Source of the DNA: Patescibacteria group bacterium
GTDB taxonomy: Bacteria; Patescibacteriota; Patescibacteriia; PEXW01
Direction of reading: 5' to 3'
Length of the DNA: 64,000 nt
Assembly (NCBI GenBank): GCA_041671325.1
Contig: JBAZBR010000004.1
Coordinates: 4,004 to 68,003 of the forward strand
In this document: piece after piece, positions 17,801 through 56,395 of the stretch
How the letters are laid out: each line of letters starts with the position of its first letter
Numbering within the stretch: the stretch's first letter is position 1
Translations under genes and position numbers: made by a program
The notes under the pieces: generated by a model
Seen by the model: the letters and a program-made list of their open reading frames with translations, nothing else
What the model was told of the DNA's origin: nothing
Database searches by the model: none

Positions 17801-19831
17801 GTCAAGACTTTGGTGAATTTAAGCGCCATTGATGAGGCTATAACCGCCATTCAAATCGATAATACGCCAACACCCTTGGAAACTTTGTATACTTTTTTAC
17901 CCGATGGGTTGATTGAACAGTACGCCAGCCACTTGCCTACGAAATTGGAAACAATGGCTGAAGGCGGCGGGGGCGGTGATGGCGCCAGGAAAAACTTTAA
18001 AGATGCGGTTTTATTCACGGAAGTGGAAACTAATGCCGCTGGCCAAGCAGAGGTGGAATTTTCACTGCCGGACAACATTACTTCTTGGCGGATAACCGCC
18101 CAAGGCGTGACACAAGATTTATCTGCCGGGCAAAATTCCATCAAACTGCCAGTAACTAAGGCCATATTTGGGGTTTTGACCATGAGCGAAGAGTATGTGG
18201 TTGATGATCAGCCGGTGGTAGTAGCCGGAGCTTATGGTTCAGGTTTGAATGTTGACAGCGACATCAGTTTTAAACTTGAGGTACCAGGTTTAGGCGAGTC
18301 GCAAACCAAGACAGCCAAGGCCTTTACTTTGCAGAAGTTTGTTTTACCGAAATTTCAGGTCGGGGATCAGGAAATAATACTGACGGTTAAATCAGGCGAA
18401 CAAAGCGATGTTTTAAGTCGGAAATTTAAAGTCTTGAGCTCCAGGCTGACTAAAGCCGCCAATGAATTTTTGGAAGCCAAGCCCGGTTTGACCATTACTG
18501 GTTCAGATGTCGACAGGACTACCCTAGTCTTTAGTGATTTGGAGAGGGGACGGTTGATATCATCTTTATATGGTTTGCGTTGGGCTTATGGCAAAAGATT
18601 GGAAACCCATTTGTCAGCCAATATAGCCAAAGACTTACTGACACAACTTGGCATTCAAGGGATTGATTCAAATAAAGACCCTAATTTTTTCCTGAGTTTC
18701 CAGCAAGAAGACGGCGGTATTAGCCAAATAAATTATGGGAGTTCAAGTTTGACTTTAAGTGCTTATGCGGCCGGTGCTTCTGATGTATTTGATAAGGTGA
18801 AGTTACGCCAATATTTTGTGAACAAACTTGAACAGAAGAATGCTTCTACCGAGCAAATTGGCTTGGCGCTCTTGGGCTTGGCCAACCTCAATGAACCGGT
18901 TTTACCGGACATTGATAGTTTTTTAAATCTTAATAATCTTGATGCTGAAGACCAGCTGACTGCCGCTTTAGCGTATTATGCTTTAGGCAGTTATGAAAAA
19001 ACTGCTGGAATTATGGTGGAATTATTCAAGAAGTACGGGGTGGTAGAAAAGCCTTTTGCCAAATTAAACCTTGGCGGAAGCAATGACAGTAAAATCGTCA
19101 ATACAGCCAGGTTCTATATTCTGGCTGAAGGCTTGAAATACGAGCAAAGAGCAGGTTTAAGCAAGTATTTAGCCAATAATTTTCCCAAAGACACCATAAC
19201 TAATCTGGAAAGAGTTTTAGCCATTAAAGCCGCAGTCCCACTCTTGAATGACCAAAGCGTTAGTTTGGATAATTCGGTAAATAGCCAAGTTACTTCCATC
19301 CAGCTAAAAAATTCAGAAACCAAGACTATCTCTCTAACACCGGCAGAATTAAAAACTTTCAAGGTAGTCAGTTACCAGGGCTTGGTGGGCATTGCCGTCA
19401 GCTCCTTAACGCCAATTGATATTAATGCAGAAAAAAAGGACGACCGGTTAAGTTTGGACCGGACATACTTCAATATCACGGATTGGGGCAAGGCAATTAA
19501 GCAGGGTGATATTGTCAGGATTGACCTCAAACCAAAACTGAAAGGCAATATAATTGATACCACCTACTTTGTCATTGACGAATTGCCATCGGGTTTAGTG
19601 CTGTTAACCAATCCTTGGCAAAGGGGGATTGCCTATGATAATAATCAGGGCTATCCCTTGGAAATCGACGGTCAGCGCCTGACTTTTTACAGCAATGCCC
19701 AGCGCGCTTTCCATTATTATGCCCGGGTTTTGACGCCTGGTGGGTATGCGGCAGAACCAGCACTGATCCAAGGCCAGAACAGCCGAGAAATAATTAATTA
19801 TTCCGGTGCGCAAACTTTGGAAATTAAATAG
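14879..19831 (+). CDS. Large (1650 aa) membrane-anchored alpha-2-macroglobulin-family-like protein
   Basis: N-terminal TM helix. FKDAVLFTEVETNAAGQAEVEFSLPDNITSWRITAQGV resembles the bacterial A2M (YfhM-like) signature region. No CxEQ thioester motif was seen. Confidence 0.5.
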   Translation: MALRLWSSKPIRAWLFSVCAIALILVGLGAYFKFFYQPAKTGPQAFDKVVIPADAKLGQFFLQPTKADALGVETDTAFTLKSSIPIQKKDIEVSLSILPKVDLAIASVSDKEFTITPKEKLAAGSVYKISLGTTVKSDTGSEKQIFSWAYQPKESLEIDGTLPKNKATGVPLNTGIEVTFNTDKVKDFEKNITFSPALEGRFEKHGRVVAFVPKERLRPSTLYSVVVAKGLPINGSSVSLASDFIFKFETAGTDDNNGYSYPDFFDPSFHAVKPGEAPVIESNNTIGDLTSSKAVVYKFKDNAELVERLKPLDEIPEWAYWSRKQALIKLEGLHKIGEYTPTVEIHDYQRFIRMPNGFDARYYVMDLTLNKQRLQTVVAVSEIGAAMYASRQEAVLWVQDLKTKEPLVGGSVKNLESSEEKIIDKDGLAKLKTPSAVTGGNDSLATRSYFSVTAKDGRNLIVPIAQNFYGSWMNYGMGWRSSNPDYWAYVSTDRTLYRPDDTVNVWGVVRDRQATNFTDQEVKMEIWTWNYVDGNSDYIPLVTETVKTGEYGNYIKSIKLDHLTSGSYTLSVKNSNNEIIASKYFEVRTFAKPAYQILVTPDKLAGFDGEEITYSIQTQFFDGTPAPNIKLAYSDYGQAGEAGTKIITDAQGKASVKVTINAKDPKNIQYIHKSFFPQDAAEGDIVADTDVIGYPSAVTFDPTGQFEGNNAKISLTLSTIDTSKVNTTWYYMQDIKGVIVPNSEITGTVYEQITKKTKRGEEYNFIEKTVVDLYDYTTTDEKREDFSGLTNDKGIFEKEFNLTGTQYRIDITAKDQNGRKVTRSVYLYKDGYHEYSQNNDYMVTDAQDLADANGVSKKYNIGETTEIRLIKNGQPVKGKGPFLFIKMQNGIKEVSVKDVSTFKYVFKAEDAPNISFSAAYFNGSSFILTNYSANLVFNEQSRALNLKLEPGQATYAPGDKAKLKVTVTNKQNQPVKTLVNLSAIDEAITAIQIDNTPTPLETLYTFLPDGLIEQYASHLPTKLETMAEGGGGGDGARKNFKDAVLFTEVETNAAGQAEVEFSLPDNITSWRITAQGVTQDLSAGQNSIKLPVTKAIFGVLTMSEEYVVDDQPVVVAGAYGSGLNVDSDISFKLEVPGLGESQTKTAKAFTLQKFVLPKFQVGDQEIILTVKSGEQSDVLSRKFKVLSSRLTKAANEFLEAKPGLTITGSDVDRTTLVFSDLERGRLISSLYGLRWAYGKRLETHLSANIAKDLLTQLGIQGIDSNKDPNFFLSFQQEDGGISQINYGSSSLTLSAYAAGASDVFDKVKLRQYFVNKLEQKNASTEQIGLALLGLANLNEPVLPDIDSFLNLNNLDAEDQLTAALAYYALGSYEKTAGIMVELFKKYGVVEKPFAKLNLGGSNDSKIVNTARFYILAEGLKYEQRAGLSKYLANNFPKDTITNLERVLAIKAAVPLLNDQSVSLDNSVNSQVTSIQLKNSETKTISLTPAELKTFKVVSYQGLVGIAVSSLTPIDINAEKKDDRLSLDRTYFNITDWGKAIKQGDIVRIDLKPKLKGNIIDTTYFVIDELPSGLVLLTNPWQRGIAYDNNQGYPLEIDGQRLTFYSNAQRAFHYYARVLTPGGYAAEPALIQGQNSREIINYSGAQTLEIK

Positions 19832-20669
19832 CTTAATACTCCTAATCATCATCGCTGCGCTAGCCATAAGCTGGCGCAGCTTTGGGCACTCGAAAAAATC
19901 TTCTTTAAGTTCAAAGATACTTGAAGAAATTACTTTGGCCCAGGTGGAAAGCGCCTATTCAGCTGGCCAAGAGTCAAAAGTGGTTAATGGCGCCAAAGCT
20001 GCGGTGCTGCCGCACCACCTTTTAGCTGATTATCTGATTGGCAGGCTAATTGGCAGTTTAAGAACCGCACAACCAACAACTATTATAATCATGGGCCCAG
20101 ATCACCAGAATAAAAGTTTAACAGAATTTTCAATCAGTGATGCCAATTGGCACTGGCAAAACCAGATTTTTGAAGTTAATAAGAAAATAGTTGATGATTT
20201 AAAAACCCTTAGCTCGGTAACGATAGATAATGAGCTGATTAAAAATGAGCATTCGGTTTTAACGCCCTTGCCCTTTTTAAAAAAACAATTTCCCAATTCA
20301 AATTTTGTGATACTAGCCGTAAAAAGTGGATTTGGTTTGGCCCAAATCCAAGAAATTGCAAATGTCCTAAACAAAACCTTAACTGAAAACGATTTAGTTA
20401 TTGCCAGCGTGGATTTTTCCCATTACCAGAATTTCCAAATCGCAAACCTTGAAGATGAAAAAAGCCTAAAACTCCTGGAAAAGATGATCCCCGTGGAGTT
20501 AAAAGATGTTTCCGCTGATTCTCCAACTTCGCTAGCCATTGTAATGGAATTTGCCAAACTTCGGAGCGCCAAGGGTTTGGAAATAATTGACCATAAAAAT
20601 TCCGCAGAAATATCAGGTAATCTCGCCTCCCAATCCACTACCAGTTATTTGGATTTTGTATTTTATTAA
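19806..20669 (+). CDS. Memo-like / AmmeMemoRadiSam system protein B family
   Basis: AAVLPHHLLADYLIG, IIIMGPDHQN, EHSVLTPLPFL and ASVDFSHYQ are collinear with MEMO1 motifs (PHAGY, LGPSHH, EHS.E..LP, SSDFCHWG). Confidence 0.65.
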   Translation: MRKLWKLNSLILLIIIAALAISWRSFGHSKKSSLSSKILEEITLAQVESAYSAGQESKVVNGAKAAVLPHHLLADYLIGRLIGSLRTAQPTTIIIMGPDHQNKSLTEFSISDANWHWQNQIFEVNKKIVDDLKTLSSVTIDNELIKNEHSVLTPLPFLKKQFPNSNFVILAVKSGFGLAQIQEIANVLNKTLTENDLVIASVDFSHYQNFQIANLEDEKSLKLLEKMIPVELKDVSADSPTSLAIVMEFAKLRSAKGLEIIDHKNSAEISGNLASQSTTSYLDFVFY

Positions 20670-20731
20670 AGTGATTTGTCACTCAATTTTATTAATATAA
20701 TTACCTCCCCTTGCATCCCCTCCTTCTTATT

Positions 20732-20884
20732 TGTCATCCCGAGCCTTGCCGACCTGCCCGCCGAACTAGCATGGTCCAGCCTTCGCAGCCGCTTCGGCGG
20801 AGTAGGCCAGGCGGGGGGATCCCGATAAGATAACCCGAGATTCCCCCACTCGCCCTCGAAGACTCGGGCTCGATCGGAATGACA
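20732..20884. repeat. MITE/REP-like imperfect palindromic element (TGTCATCCCGAGCC...GGCTCGATCGGAATGACA)
   Basis: The terminal inverted repeats were read directly. The internal GACCTGCCCGCC motif is shared (as a reverse complement) with the elements at 27025 and 35837. Confidence 0.55.
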
Positions 20885-20895
20885 GAAGGATCATA

Positions 20896-21195
20896 ATGAC
20901 ACGTAATAATACGAGAAAGCACAAATATTATGTTTATATGATGGCAAGCAAGAGTGGCGTGTTGTATATTGGCGTAACAAATAGTTTGATACACAGAGTT
21001 CTTGAACATAAAAACGGTTTGGTCGAAGGATTTACTAAAAAGTATAAATGCCAAAAACTGGTTTACTATGAAGAAACCGATGATATTAGTGCGGCAATCG
21101 CCAGAGAGAAACAATTAAAAAAATGGCGAAGAGAAAAGAAAGTTAAATTGATAGATACAATTAATCCGGGTTGGAAAGATTTAAGCGAGGAATAA
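20896..21195 (+). CDS. GIY-YIG nuclease family protein
   Basis: YYVYMMASKSGVLYIGVTNSLIHRVLEHKNG contains the GIY-YIG motif. The gene is flanked on both sides by MITE-like elements. Confidence 0.7.
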   Translation: MTRNNTRKHKYYVYMMASKSGVLYIGVTNSLIHRVLEHKNGLVEGFTKKYKCQKLVYYEETDDISAAIAREKQLKKWRREKKVKLIDTINPGWKDLSEE

Positions 21196-21202
21196 TTTCC
21201 TT

Positions 21203-21303
21203 TGTCATTTCGAGCGAAGCGTAGCGGAGCCGAGAAATCTAATTATCTCTAAAGGAGATTCCTCCGCTACAGTCGCCTTTGGCTCCTTCCGGTCGGAATG
21301 ACA
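21203..21303. repeat. MITE/REP-like palindromic element (TGTCATTTCGAGCGAAG...CTTCCGGTCGGAATGACA)
   Basis: Terminal inverted repeats read directly. It lies immediately 3' of the GIY-YIG gene. Confidence 0.55.
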
Positions 21304-21353
21304 AGATGATCGCCTGAGATGACAATTAGTTTAAGATATGGCAAAGTAAAATT

Positions 21354-22139
21354 ATGTCCATCGTCATCCTCCAATACAACCGAACTAAAAGGATCATCCA
21401 AATATTAGCACTATTGGTGGTTATTGTTATTGTTTATTTGTTTGTGTTTATTAGGTTTTATGCAAACACGGCCAACGAAAACAACTGGTTTAATAATCAT
21501 TTTCGAACCAGCTTGGCCAAGCATGATTTTTGGCGTTCGGTTTTTAATTTGCACCGTGATGGCGATGGGCAGGCTGCATATCTGGCTAAAAACAAATTAG
21601 CCGTGGTTATTTACACTACTGAAGATAATCAGATCTCGGCGGAGGTGAAAAATAATCTGGAGAAGGAGATAAAAAATATTTTGCCTAACTTATTGGAGGT
21701 GAAGTATTATGACGGCCAGCAACTGAATTTGGATAAGGCCAGCTATATGCGAAAAGATGTCAGGGATTTTGTGGCTGAGTTGTCGAAGAAAAAAGCGCAA
21801 ACCGATACCGCGCTTTTGAATGTCTTTATATTAAATCGTTCAGAAGAATATCCCGGCAATATTGGGTTAACCAATACAGACAATGGTGTAGTTATTTTTT
21901 GGGAGACGATTAAAGATTTGACCGCGGAAAATCCCAGCACTTTTGAGACTTATGTCAGCTCAACCATCTTGCACGAATTTGGCCACCAACTTGGTTTAAA
22001 CCACCTGGATGATCCAAGCTGTATCATGTCTTCAAGCGTGGAAAATCCAGGGACAAATACGGTTGGAAATTACTGGCCAGTAACCAGTTATTGCCAGCAG
22101 GAAAAAGCTTTAATTACCGTTAAGTTAAAAGTTGAGTAA
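21354..22139 (+). CDS. Membrane-anchored zinc metallopeptidase, archaemetzincin/metzincin-like
   Basis: HEFGHQLGLNHLDDPSC is an HExxHxxGxxH zinc-binding motif followed by a Cys, as in archaemetzincins. N-terminal TM helix. Confidence 0.6.
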   Translation: MSIVILQYNRTKRIIQILALLVVIVIVYLFVFIRFYANTANENNWFNNHFRTSLAKHDFWRSVFNLHRDGDGQAAYLAKNKLAVVIYTTEDNQISAEVKNNLEKEIKNILPNLLEVKYYDGQQLNLDKASYMRKDVRDFVAELSKKKAQTDTALLNVFILNRSEEYPGNIGLTNTDNGVVIFWETIKDLTAENPSTFETYVSSTILHEFGHQLGLNHLDDPSCIMSSSVENPGTNTVGNYWPVTSYCQQEKALITVKLKVE

Positions 22140-26867: not shown

Positions 26868-27010
26868 GTCCCTCTCCCTCTGGGAGAGGGTGCCGGAGGC
26901 GGTGGTGCCTGCCCGCCGTACTTCGTCTGGCGAAGGCAGGCGGGAGGGTTACTCGGAAATACAAATTATATCGTGAACCTCACCCCAGCCCTCTCCTATA
27001 TAGGAGAGGG
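26868..27010. repeat. Hairpin-pair repeat element (CCCTCTCCCTCTGGGAGAGGG ... CCCTCTCCTATATAGGAGAGGG)
   Basis: Two matching GGGAGAGGG-type hairpins bracket a GC-rich core. The overlapping ORF 26835-27044 is probably spurious. Confidence 0.45.
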
Positions 27011-27024
27011 GGATTTTAATTACG

Positions 27025-27208
27025 TCATTGCGACCCCGACGTAAGTCAGGGGAAGCAATTTTTTGGATTTGTCATCCTGAATCAACCAAATGGCGGATGA
27101 AGGATCTTTATAAATATTGTATTTATGAGGATTCTCCCGCCTACCTCGCCAAGGCGAGTTCAGTGGGCAGGTCGTCGTCCGACGTACGTCGGAACTCCTC
27201 AGAATGAC
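27025..27208. repeat. MITE/REP-like palindromic element (GTCATTGCGACCCCGACGTA...TACGTCGGAACTCCTCAGAATGACA)
   Basis: The terminal inverted repeats and the internal CTCGCCAAGGCGAG and GGGCAGGTCG motifs are shared with other copies. Confidence 0.5.
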
Positions 27209-27333
27209 AGAAAAAGAAAAAGGCGAACCACCCGGTTCGCCTCAAATGTATATTCGCATCTTGACACTAGGCGTGGCTGGTTTAGGATTGGAGCATAGGT
27301 ATTTTTCTGATTTCGTAATTAACTTTTAAATAT

Positions 27334-35836: not shown

Positions 35837-35998
35837 TGTCATTGCGAGCGACTCCGCCGCCGCGGGGAGGAGTGCGGCAGTCTCAAAAGAAATGGGAGAT
35901 TGCTCCCGCCTGGCCTACTCCGCTGAAGCGGCTGCGAAGGCTGGACCTCGCCAAGGCGAGTACGGCGGGCAGGTCGTCTCTGCCTACGGCAGATCCTC
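35837..35998. repeat. MITE/REP-like palindromic element (TGTCATTGCGAGCGAC...GATCCTCGCAATAACA)
   Basis: Terminal inverted repeats plus the CTCGCCAAGGCGAG and GGCGGGCAGGTCG core shared with 27025 and 20732. Confidence 0.55.
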
Positions 35999-36044
35999 GC
36001 AATAACAATGGGAATTTAGCGGTAAAGACTTTTTAATTAAATGA

Positions 36045-45328: not shown

Positions 45329-45403
45329 GTCCCCATAGCTTAACGGATAAAGCGTAGGCCTCCGAAGCCTGAGATTGAGGTTCAATTCCTCATGGGGGCA
45401 CCA
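45329..45403 (+). tRNA. tRNA-Arg (anticodon CCG), with encoded CCA
   Basis: Hand-folded: acceptor GTCCCCA/TGGGGGC, D-arm GCTT-AACGGATA-AAGC, anticodon stem TAGGC/GCCTG with loop CTCCGAA (CCG), T-arm TGAGG-TTCAATT-CCTCA, then A-CCA. Confidence 0.8.
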
Positions 45404-45475
45404 GCTCGTTTCGTGCTTCACCCTGCGTGAGCGCGCTTTTCGCTTGCTCACTTCAGGTTACGCACGAAGCCTCGC
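45404..45475 (+). ncRNA. Conserved structured element immediately 3' of a tRNA (copy 2 of 2)
   Basis: GCTCGTTTCGTGCTTCACCCTGCGTGAGCGCGCTTTTCGCTTGCTCAC...GCACGAAGCCTCGC has the same nested stems as the copy at 1130-1200. A terminator-like hairpin follows at 45549-45585 (CCCCAATTTTTTATTAAAAAATTGGGG). Confidence 0.4.
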
Positions 45476-45690
45476 ATTCCCGACAAACCCGTACTCGCTC
45501 CGCTGCGTTCCTGGTTTGTCGGGTCAGGTTTCACAAACGTGTCGCTTACCCCAATTTTTTATTAAAAAATTGGGGCCCCCCGGGTTTTAGTTTGCTTTTT
45601 TATCCTTAAAGAGAGAAAATAAAAAGGCACACCCTTAAACAAATAAGGGTTTAAAGCATTACAAAATCTCAATAATTAACCAAAATAATT

Positions 45691-51719: not shown

Positions 51720-51853
51720 TTTAAAGATTATAATTGCCTCGTCCCTTTCGACTCCTTGCCATGACAATAATAAATAACCCGTCATTGCGAGCCCCCGCTT
51801 TTTGGCGGGGGGGGTGTGGCAATCTTTAACTATAGTAAACTAACATCCATACT

Positions 51854-55960: not shown

Positions 55961-56152
55961 ATGAATGGCCAAAATCGAAATAACATTTATCCAGGACTGC
56001 ATGTGGCGATAGTCCAAAAACAAGACCAGCCCACGGGCAGACTGACCGAGGGCATTGTTAAAGATATTTTAACCAATTCTCCCACGCATCCGCATGGCAT
56101 AAAAGTGCGATTGGAAACTGGGGAAGTGGGGAGAGTGCAAGAAATTAGGTAA
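55961..56152 (+). CDS. YwbE/DUF2196-like small protein
   Basis: GLHVAIVQKQDQPTGRLTEGIVKDILT...HPHGIKVRLETGEVGRVQEI. Confidence 0.45.
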   Translation: MNGQNRNNIYPGLHVAIVQKQDQPTGRLTEGIVKDILTNSPTHPHGIKVRLETGEVGRVQEIR

Positions 56153-56395
56153 ATGTATTACCTCTATATTTTGAAATGCAAGGATAAGACGCTTTATACC
56201 GGCATTACCACAGATTTAAAAAGGCGTTTAGCTGAACATAACTCATCAAAACTCGGGGCAAAATATACCAAAGGCCGGAGGCCGGTTAAGTTGGTTTATA
56301 CTAAAAAATTTCGAACTCGGTCTACAGCAACAAAGACAGAAGCACGGATAAAAAATTTATCGCGGACAGAGAAACTGCGTTTAATTAAAAAGTAG
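56153..56395 (+). CDS. GIY-YIG nuclease family protein
   Basis: MYYLYILKCKDKTLYTGITTDLKRRLAEH. The gene starts on the nucleotide after the upstream stop codon (taaATG). Confidence 0.75.
   Translation: MYYLYILKCKDKTLYTGITTDLKRRLAEHNSSKLGAKYTKGRRPVKLVYTKKFRTRSTATKTEARIKNLSRTEKLRLIKK

Follow-up and report, generated by a model that had tools for sequence, protein, structure and literature searches.

Does a small GIY-YIG nuclease gene that lies tightly between two palindromic elements in a Patescibacteria genome belong to a homing-type cassette, or is it the enzyme that reads those elements? The question arises from a 64,000-nt stretch of contig JBAZBR010000004.1 (assembly GCA_041671325.1), hereafter the window. 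In it, an initial annotation pointed to a 99-aa GIY-YIG open reading frame (ORF) bracketed by MITE-like elements, and proposed that this was one of three copies of a mobile or once-mobile, homing-type module. The ORF, the termini of both elements and their folds were confirmed, and the features discussed below are collected in Table 1.

Table 1. Positions in the window of the nuclease gene, its flanking elements and the dispersed repeat units
Feature	Position	Strand	Basis
E1, inverted pair (dimer) of SRM-like units, GTC tags outward; 153 nt, GC ~0.6	20732..20884		termini, fold, E3 similarity
U1, left half of E1: T-GTC-ATCCC-GA-[~71-nt GC-rich nested insert]-GG-GGGAT-C	20732..20821	+	unit scan
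U2, right half of E1: T-GTC-ATTCC-GA-[loop]-GG-GGAAT-C	20839..20884	-	unit scan
Putative Shine-Dalgarno-like GAAGGA, 5 nt ahead of the ATG	20885..20890	+	read from the sequence
Probable ssnA homologue, 99-aa single-domain GIY-YIG nuclease, Ssn family	20896..21195	+	PF01541 and SsnA homology
E2, inverted pair of SRM-like units, tags outward; 101 nt	21203..21303		termini, fold
U3, left half of E2: T-GTC-ATTTC-GA-GCGAAGC-G-TAGCGGAGCC-GA-GAAAT-C	21203..21239	+	unit scan
U4, right half of E2: T-GTC-ATTCC-GA-[loop]-GA-GGAAT-C	21257..21303	-	unit scan
Degenerate extra unit end TGTCATCTCAGGC, 2 mismatches	21312..21324	-	terminus pattern search
U8, single unit: C-GTC-ATTGC-GA-[hairpin]-AA-GCAAT, then T in place of C	27023..27059	+	unit scan
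E4, probable SRM dimer, units 27070-27106 (+) and 27130-27209 (-); intergenic	27070..27209		unit scan, modules common with E1
E3, probable decayed SRM dimer, E1 homologue inverted including the inner GC-rich modules; intergenic	35837..36006		alignment
U7, single unit: C-GTC-ATTGC-GA-[8-bp GC hairpin]-GCAAT-C; intergenic	51780..51824	+	unit scan

The product of the ORF matches the Pfam GIY-YIG domain (PF01541; E 1.3e-14, residues 10-82) and contains no second domain. The Ssn family of nucleases, which cut single-stranded DNA (ssDNA) at specific sites, was founded on SsnA of Neisseria meningitidis, a GIY-YIG protein of 94 aa that has no other domain and falls in CDD family cd10448 (Chenal et al., Nat Commun 2025, PMC11893778). 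For comparison, we used the 94-aa orthologue of SsnA on an N. gonorrhoeae chromosome (L092:1489-1773), one of two such chromosomes filed in a plasmid collection; this orthologue retains Y6, Y17 and E64, and a canonical NTS, the repeat bound by SsnA, lies directly upstream and downstream of its gene. Over 85 residues, this orthologue and the window protein have 48% identity (87 bits, E 4e-29). The three residues of SsnA whose mutation abolishes cleavage, Y6, Y17 and E64 (PMC11893778), correspond in the alignment to Y14, Y24 and E71 of the window protein, and the signature of the Ssn-like clade, REKQLKKWRREKK...NPxWxDL, is present. A PDB search with the 99-aa protein returned no Ssn structure, and the nearest match, to the UPF0213 structures solved by NMR, was weak (E 5e-4). 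NCBIfam profiles gave nothing above their cut-offs for the GIY-YIG proteins of the window, and no homing-endonuclease match for the 99-aa protein. Its homologues number 3472 at E <= 0.001 (55-76% identical) and occur in Patescibacteria, Chloroflexota, Acidobacteriota, Pseudomonadota, Planctomycetota, Bacteroidota, Cyanobacteria and others.

The gene stands between two complete dimers (+- gene +-), whose termini follow the form TGTCATYYCGAGC...GGAATGACA. E1 starts with TGTCATCCCGAGC at 20732 and is closed by GATCGGAATGACA at 20884; E2 starts with TGTCATTTCGAGC at 21203 and is closed by GGTCGGAATGACA at 21303. The spacers measure 11 nt between E1 and the ORF (containing GAAGGA) and 7 nt between the ORF and E2. 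The tight flanking described initially therefore holds, whereas the gap lengths of 12 and 8 nt were each off by one. Allowing up to two mismatches, TGTCATYYCGAGC occurs 11 times in the whole window against 3.5 expected, a count reached in 0 of 100 shuffles. E1 also forms a GC spike (0.57-0.66) in surroundings of ~0.3-0.4, the window mean being 0.43. Compared with shuffled sequence, the whole elements fold strongly as RNA (z = -4.4 for E1 and -3.8 for E2); folded as DNA, the whole dimers gave z = -1.9 and -4.2, respectively. Folded singly as ssDNA, units U1-U4 were no more stable than shuffles (z between -0.34 and +1.4), under energy parameters that give neither tandem G.A pairs nor the GCGAAGC mini-hairpin any bonus; the corresponding values were -2.15 for U7 and -4.45 for the Neisseria NTS.

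The published pattern for Ssn-related motifs (SRMs), HGTCWYN(0-2)YYVSBRHN(0-5)WNVSBRGN(0-2)RNCYNB, had no match in the window and matched 8 of 80 homologous loci. It misses the window units because their loops are expanded, the pattern allowing only 0-5 nt. In its place we used a generic scan for a tag, a stem and the complement of that stem, and the conserved C was then checked without being imposed. With the C included, a 5-nt stem yielded 12 sites in the window against 1.85 expected (maximum of 7 in 100 shuffles). The 64 kb hold ten units in total, eight found by the scan and two recognized by eye in E3 with one mismatch each; they occupy four intergenic sites, and six of them lie away from the gene in other intergenic regions. 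All scanned units (8/8) have GA after the 5' stem, and 7/8 have C after the palindrome when C is not imposed. The general form is (T/C)GTC-AYYYY-GA-[variable loop]-GR-RRRRT-C, with GTC tags pointing outward in dimers, Watson-Crick stems of 5 bp and loops of 19-75 nt, those of E1, E3 and E4 holding nested GC-rich hairpins. Every copy of the elements is intergenic, and both orientations relative to the neighbouring genes are represented. E1 and E3, compared on opposite strands, are ~73% identical over ~140 nt; since this identity extends to the non-SRM interior, whole dimers have been copied. When the flanks of E1-E4 were read by eye, no target-site duplication was seen. The initial label of MITE-like is thus apt for the terminal inverted repeats and the multiple copies, but a classical MITE was rejected, as neither target-site duplication nor a transposase of known class nor a parental IS was seen.

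The link between nuclease gene and flanking palindromes, drawn in the initial annotation from one locus, extends well beyond it. Among 80 genome loci from many phyla that carry homologues of the 99-aa protein, at least one unit lies within 350 nt of the gene in 59 and on both sides in 45. In this sample, units are ~8-fold denser close to the gene (3.65 per kb) than at a greater distance (0.46 per kb). Motifs of both orientations cluster in the 300 nt next to the ORF, where most 100-nt bins contain 9-34 of them, compared with ~1 per bin beyond. The commonest layout, unit(+) - gene - unit(-), was found at 14 of the 80 loci. Without C being required by the scan, 201 of the 225 near-gene units have a C after the palindrome; T precedes GTC in 176 of them, GA follows the 5' stem in 160 and GA precedes the 3' stem in 171. 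The GCGAAGC mini-hairpin occurs in 38/80 loci. In the units of this clade, GTC tag, G.A flanks and the C behind the palindrome are conserved, and in many cases GCGAAGC as well; stems are short and loops can expand. Furthermore, an exact Neisseria-type NTS adjoins homologues ~56-62% identical to the window protein, namely at L029 (on both sides), L052, L058 and L062. By the published pattern, 71% of ssnA homologues have an SRM nearby and 42% have SRMs on both sides (PMC11893778).

Homology to SsnA, the exact NTS beside homologues of 56-62% identity and the weakness of the UPF0213 match led us to assign the gene to the Ssn family and to class E1-E4 as dimers of SRMs. On these sequence comparisons, we consider it likely that the 99-aa protein is an Ssn-family ssDNA nuclease and that the four elements belong with it to an Ssn/SRM system. 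A family published in 2025 accounts for the gene-repeat locus; Patescibacteria (CPR) are a new host phylum for it, and the loop-expanded units are also new. The suggestion that the element termini might resemble the likely recognition sequence of the nuclease fits as well: they carry the motif that, judged by homology to the Neisseria NTS, the window protein would recognize.

What the protein may do can be outlined from its characterized relatives. SsnA binds the NTS (CGTCATTCCCGCGMAVGCGGGAATCYRG) solely as ssDNA and on one strand only, and its cut falls a few nucleotides ahead of this repeat; dsDNA is not cut and RNA is not bound. The three bases before the palindrome weigh most for cutting, and the C after it for binding (all PMC11893778). 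By analogy with the Neisseria and Wolbachia enzymes, a window unit would fold once its DNA turns single-stranded, as in replication, uptake of transforming DNA or conjugation. The protein would bind the folded palindrome together with the following C and cut the unit-bearing strand on the 5' side of the GTC tag, at a distance of a few nucleotides; dsDNA, RNA and the opposite strand would not be attacked. Given tags that point outward, each dimer is predicted to be cut just beyond its two ends, once per strand. We infer both the ssDNA cleavage activity and the cut position of the window protein from these enzymes. In meningococci, SsnA lowers transformation by NTS-bearing DNA (PMC11893778), and a plausible role here would likewise be to trim incoming or exposed ssDNA and modulate recombination. 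Spreading of the repeats is a possible second role.

This second role leads to an extension of the Ssn/SRM explanation, in which the cassette is or was mobile. SsnA would mobilize it in the manner of IS200/IS605 or REPIN/RAYT elements, with SRM dimers as the non-autonomous and SRM(+)-ssnA-SRM(-) as the autonomous form; we judge this possible, though on balance somewhat unlikely. The gene lies between a Memo-family gene upstream (19806-20669) and a matrixin-like (M10) metalloprotease gene downstream (21354-22139). The initial annotation took the gene to be insertion-like rather than housekeeping, and a site without it was indeed found in the distant relative L090, where A2M (52% identity), Memo (44%) and M10 protease (35%) are syntenic and just 19 nt, with no cassette, separate the Memo gene from the protease gene, compared with 684 nt in the window. 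No ssnA was found at the corresponding positions in relatives L083-L089 and L091 either. The comparison, made by protein searches and contig look-ups, covers distant relatives only, with proteins 35-71% identical; metagenome scans with the downstream protease and the upstream Memo protein gave no match. As it is missing from the A2M-Memo-protease synteny of these relatives, the cassette is not part of the conserved neighbourhood, and the L090 site indicates that it was gained or lost as a block; with so distant a relative, insertion and loss are not separable. The initial annotation is supported as regards the dispersed element copies and the absence in L090, but transposition itself is not demonstrated by the L090 site.

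Several further observations favour mobility. The arrangement with one outward-facing unit on each side of the gene is the commonest architecture in the 80 loci, and the dimers have the same end orientation as this gene-bearing form, minus the gene. E1 and E3 were copied with the interior that they have in common, and the lack of target-site duplication in the flanks is as in IS200/IS605. Homologues often lie on very short contigs, and L001, a public short-read Logan contig of the same genome, ends inside E1 at a module common with E3, the effect expected from a repeat. In addition, the 38-mer at 21203-21240 is matched at 37/38 positions by units in a Dehalococcoidia chromosome (L012) and at 36/38 by one unit in a Phycisphaerae MAG (L054), while the proteins of the three phyla are only ~57% identical. 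This sequence similarity would fit either a strong recognition constraint or horizontal spread, and is thus equally explained by what the protein must recognize. Also against mobility, the 64-kb window holds a single ssnA copy, and E3 is decayed. Moreover, GIY-YIG enzymes are not known to transfer or rejoin strands, and transposition takes more than a nuclease. The idea itself is not new: Chenal et al. likened NTS-ssnA-NTS to an insertion sequence or a REP/RAYT system and offered mobility solely as a hypothesis (PMC11893778).

A bolder form of this idea concerns the CGTC-tagged REPs, the name under which SRMs had been catalogued earlier. They have a CGTC or TGTC tag, A-T-initiated stems and inverted dimers, and Di Nocera et al. 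(2013, PMC3733652) emphasized that they had no known dedicated transposase. Ssn nucleases could be the missing enzymes that spread these repeats, and SRM(+)-ssnA-SRM(-) could represent a hitherto undescribed class of mobile elements that move as single strands by means of a GIY-YIG nuclease. Host repair would do the joining, and E1-E4, their loops enlarged by nested insertions, would be non-autonomous derivatives of such an element in a CPR genome. We offer this as speculation and hold it to be unlikely.

The strong RNA folds of E1 and E2 and the intergenic position of all copies would also suit terminators, mRNA stabilizers or regulatory RNAs that sit beside the nuclease gene by chance and are not its substrates, and REP-type repeats do affect mRNA stability and termination (PMC3733652). 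Such a chance neighbourhood is nevertheless very improbable in view of the association of gene and repeats across many phyla and its ~8-fold local enrichment. Copies of the elements face either way with respect to adjacent genes, a scan for terminator-like sites detected none, and promoter-like sites were at chance level. A known structured RNA was rejected for E1 and E2, as no Rfam family matched them: Rfam returned only two tRNAs, both at gathering thresholds over the whole window and at E-value thresholds over 20600-21450 and 600-1400. RNA is, in addition, not bound by SsnA (PMC11893778). The elements may still have a secondary effect on transcripts.

The nuclease-and-substrate reading, which we prefer to a structural one, applies to the middle of the three GIY-YIG genes in the window. 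The ORFs at 784-1038 and 56153-56395 are genuine PF01541 matches, but the three proteins are only 30-34% identical to one another. The outer two score 36 and 27 bits against SsnA, compared with 87 bits for the middle protein. They match the UPF0213 structures 1ywl and 1zg2 instead (E ~3e-19 for the product of 56153-56395; E 5e-8 and 1.5e-6 for that of 784-1038), and the unit scan found no SRM units beside either gene. By sequence, they belong to, or close to, the UPF0213/YhbQ-type family and not to Ssn, and the low mutual identity, the UPF0213 matches and the lack of SRMs do not support three copies of one mobile module. Both had been described as tied to structured DNA. The 5' end of tRNA-Leu is indeed repeated exactly over 18 nt at 696-713, with 784-1038 lying between this copy plus two small hairpins and the intact tRNA; 56153-56395 does start on the base after the stop codon of ORF 55961-56152 (63 aa), but this is operon-like packing with no repeats. 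The tRNA-Leu setting of 784-1038 looks like an insertion scar, separate from the Ssn system.

The view that all three genes are related homing-endonuclease-type cassettes, each in or beside its target, could appeal to the common PF01541 domain, to the duplicated tRNA-Leu 5' piece beside 784-1038 and to a sub-threshold match of "protein 2" to the group I intron endonuclease model TIGR01453 (E 0.0046, 17 bits, cut-off 56), but it is hardly tenable and is largely refuted as regards a common origin, given the divergence of the proteins, the tight packing of 56153-56395, the absence from all three of a DNA-binding domain and of any intron or intein context, and characterized relatives of the middle gene that cut only ssDNA beside a hairpin repeat and not dsDNA (PMC11893778). 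The 99-aa protein in particular was rejected as a GIY-YIG homing endonuclease, being a single domain with no DNA-binding extension and no intron RNA.

If the Ssn assignment is right, the annotation of this gene can be refined from "GIY-YIG nuclease family protein" to Ssn-type ssDNA nuclease, and the nearby GC-rich palindromes can be annotated as its cognate repeats. Censuses based on the published SRM pattern probably undercount the system, as the 8/80 matched loci suggest. Units accommodate large nested loop inserts and yet preserve their GTC tag, their G.A flanks and the C after the palindrome, which narrows what the enzyme must read. The near-identical 38-nt unit in three phyla bears on whether the nuclease spreads its repeats, for which the window locus provides circumstantial support. 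Ssn enzymes are under development as ssDNA tools, and a divergent enzyme-site pair would have some practical value.

Set against known systems, the 99-aa protein resembles UPF0213/YhbQ-YazA-type proteins (PDB 1ywl, 1zg2) in size and fold. With GIY-YIG homing endonucleases (I-TevI, T4 Seg) it has in common the catalytic fold and a gene that tends to appear as an insertion, whereas those enzymes have an additional domain for DNA binding, act on dsDNA of the intron-less or gene-less allele and lack genome-wide hairpin repeats. The likeness to REPIN/RAYT and IS200/IS605 (TnpA) systems is one of layout: a small nuclease gene in single copy stands between hairpin repeats in inverted orientation, inverted doublets of the repeat are scattered elsewhere, hairpins are recognized in single strands and target sites are not duplicated. 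Their Y1 HUH transposase, however, cleaves and rejoins, whereas the window gene encodes a hydrolytic GIY-YIG nuclease only; REPIN/RAYT membership was rejected because the associated protein is GIY-YIG only, with no Y1 (HUH) transposase. Closer are the CGTC-tagged REPs, including dRS3 of Neisseria and RPE-4/RPE-6 of Rickettsia, which, like the window elements, have an unpaired CGTC/TGTC tag (PMC3733652), an A-T-initiated stem and a short tail, are extragenic, frequently form inverted dimers and have no associated tyrosine transposase; their stems of 8-9 bp and loops of 4-5 nt differ from the 5 bp and 19-75 nt of the window units. The closest system is Ssn/SRM itself, with a protein of ~94-99 aa consisting of one GIY-YIG domain, 48% identity to SsnA, conservation of the tested catalytic residues, GTC-tagged palindromes followed by C on both flanks, dispersed intergenic repeats and a distribution over many phyla. 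From its published form, with an 8-bp stem and a 3-4 nt loop, the window units differ in having a stem of only 5 bp flanked by G.A/G.A and a long, in places nested, loop (19-75 nt), and the locus differs in having its gene between two complete dimers rather than two single units, and in its patescibacterial (CPR) host.

The gene call at JGI for the ssnA homologue is an 85-aa version (P0002, 20938-21195) that begins at an internal methionine and would lose the strand bearing the first GIY tyrosine. The family alignment agrees better with the 99-aa version, whose start codon has GAAGGA 5 nt upstream. Upstream of this gene, L001, a public short-read contig from the same organism, begins within the inverted Ssn-related motif (SRM) pair E1 at position 20778, at a module common to E1 and another inverted pair, E3. 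A second contig, L002, starts at approximately the same distance upstream of the ssnA homologue. This is a repeat-induced assembly break. Free-standing GC-rich palindromic modules (ccctctccctctgggagaggg; cctgcccgcc...ggcggg) were also observed at 26870-26950. These modules share approximately 80% identity with the insert in the E3 loop, and such nested inserts of SRM loops may therefore represent a separate mini-element.

In relatives carrying an orthologue of the downstream protease (L083-L088; 71% identical to the window protease), the A2M-Memo gene pair is absent from the protease locus. Directly upstream of the protease lies a gene for a 104-aa DUF559 (Vsr-like) endonuclease (e.g., L083:5680-5994), and the same neighbourhood is thus held by a different small nuclease gene.

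Another GIY-YIG gene is located at the tRNA-Leu locus, where the arrangement across 696-1129 looks like an insertion into or beside the tRNA-Leu gene, with partial duplication (see table). In both tRNA-Leu and tRNA-Arg, the encoded CCA is directly followed by 150-180 nt that share 79-83% identity between the two loci, and an Rfam search with this tRNA-trailing repeat returned no match.

Features of the tRNA-Leu locus and copies of the tRNA-trailing repeat
Feature	Window position	Detail
tRNA-Leu 5′-end copy	696-713	exact, 18 nt
Two small hairpins	714-767	directly after the 5′-end copy
Further tRNA-like piece		tggtatacgcgca; between the hairpins and the GIY-YIG gene
UPF0213-like GIY-YIG gene	784-1038	
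Intact tRNA-Leu	1045-1129	after the GIY-YIG gene
tRNA-trailing repeat, copy 1	1126-1290	after tRNA-Leu
tRNA-trailing repeat, copy 2	45400-45560	after tRNA-Arg

The 38-mer covering the SRM unit 3′ of the ssnA homologue (21203-21240) is identical at 34-37 of 38 positions to units in a Dehalococcoidia chromosome (L012; 2408, 3176 and 3544) and a Phycisphaerae MAG (L054; 2403), although the proteins adjoining those units share only approximately 57% identity with the window protein. In L022, L023, L043 and L047, SRM-like ends form long arrays around or near the ssnA homologue, with up to 15 in 800 nt, and in L023 their spacings cluster at about 22-24 nt and 87 nt. Among the 80 loci of this clade encoding homologues of the window protein (L003-L082), the published degenerate SRM pattern matched in only 8, whereas a generic scan for a tag, stem, complement and C detected units in 59. 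The system has probably been undercounted in censuses built on the published pattern.
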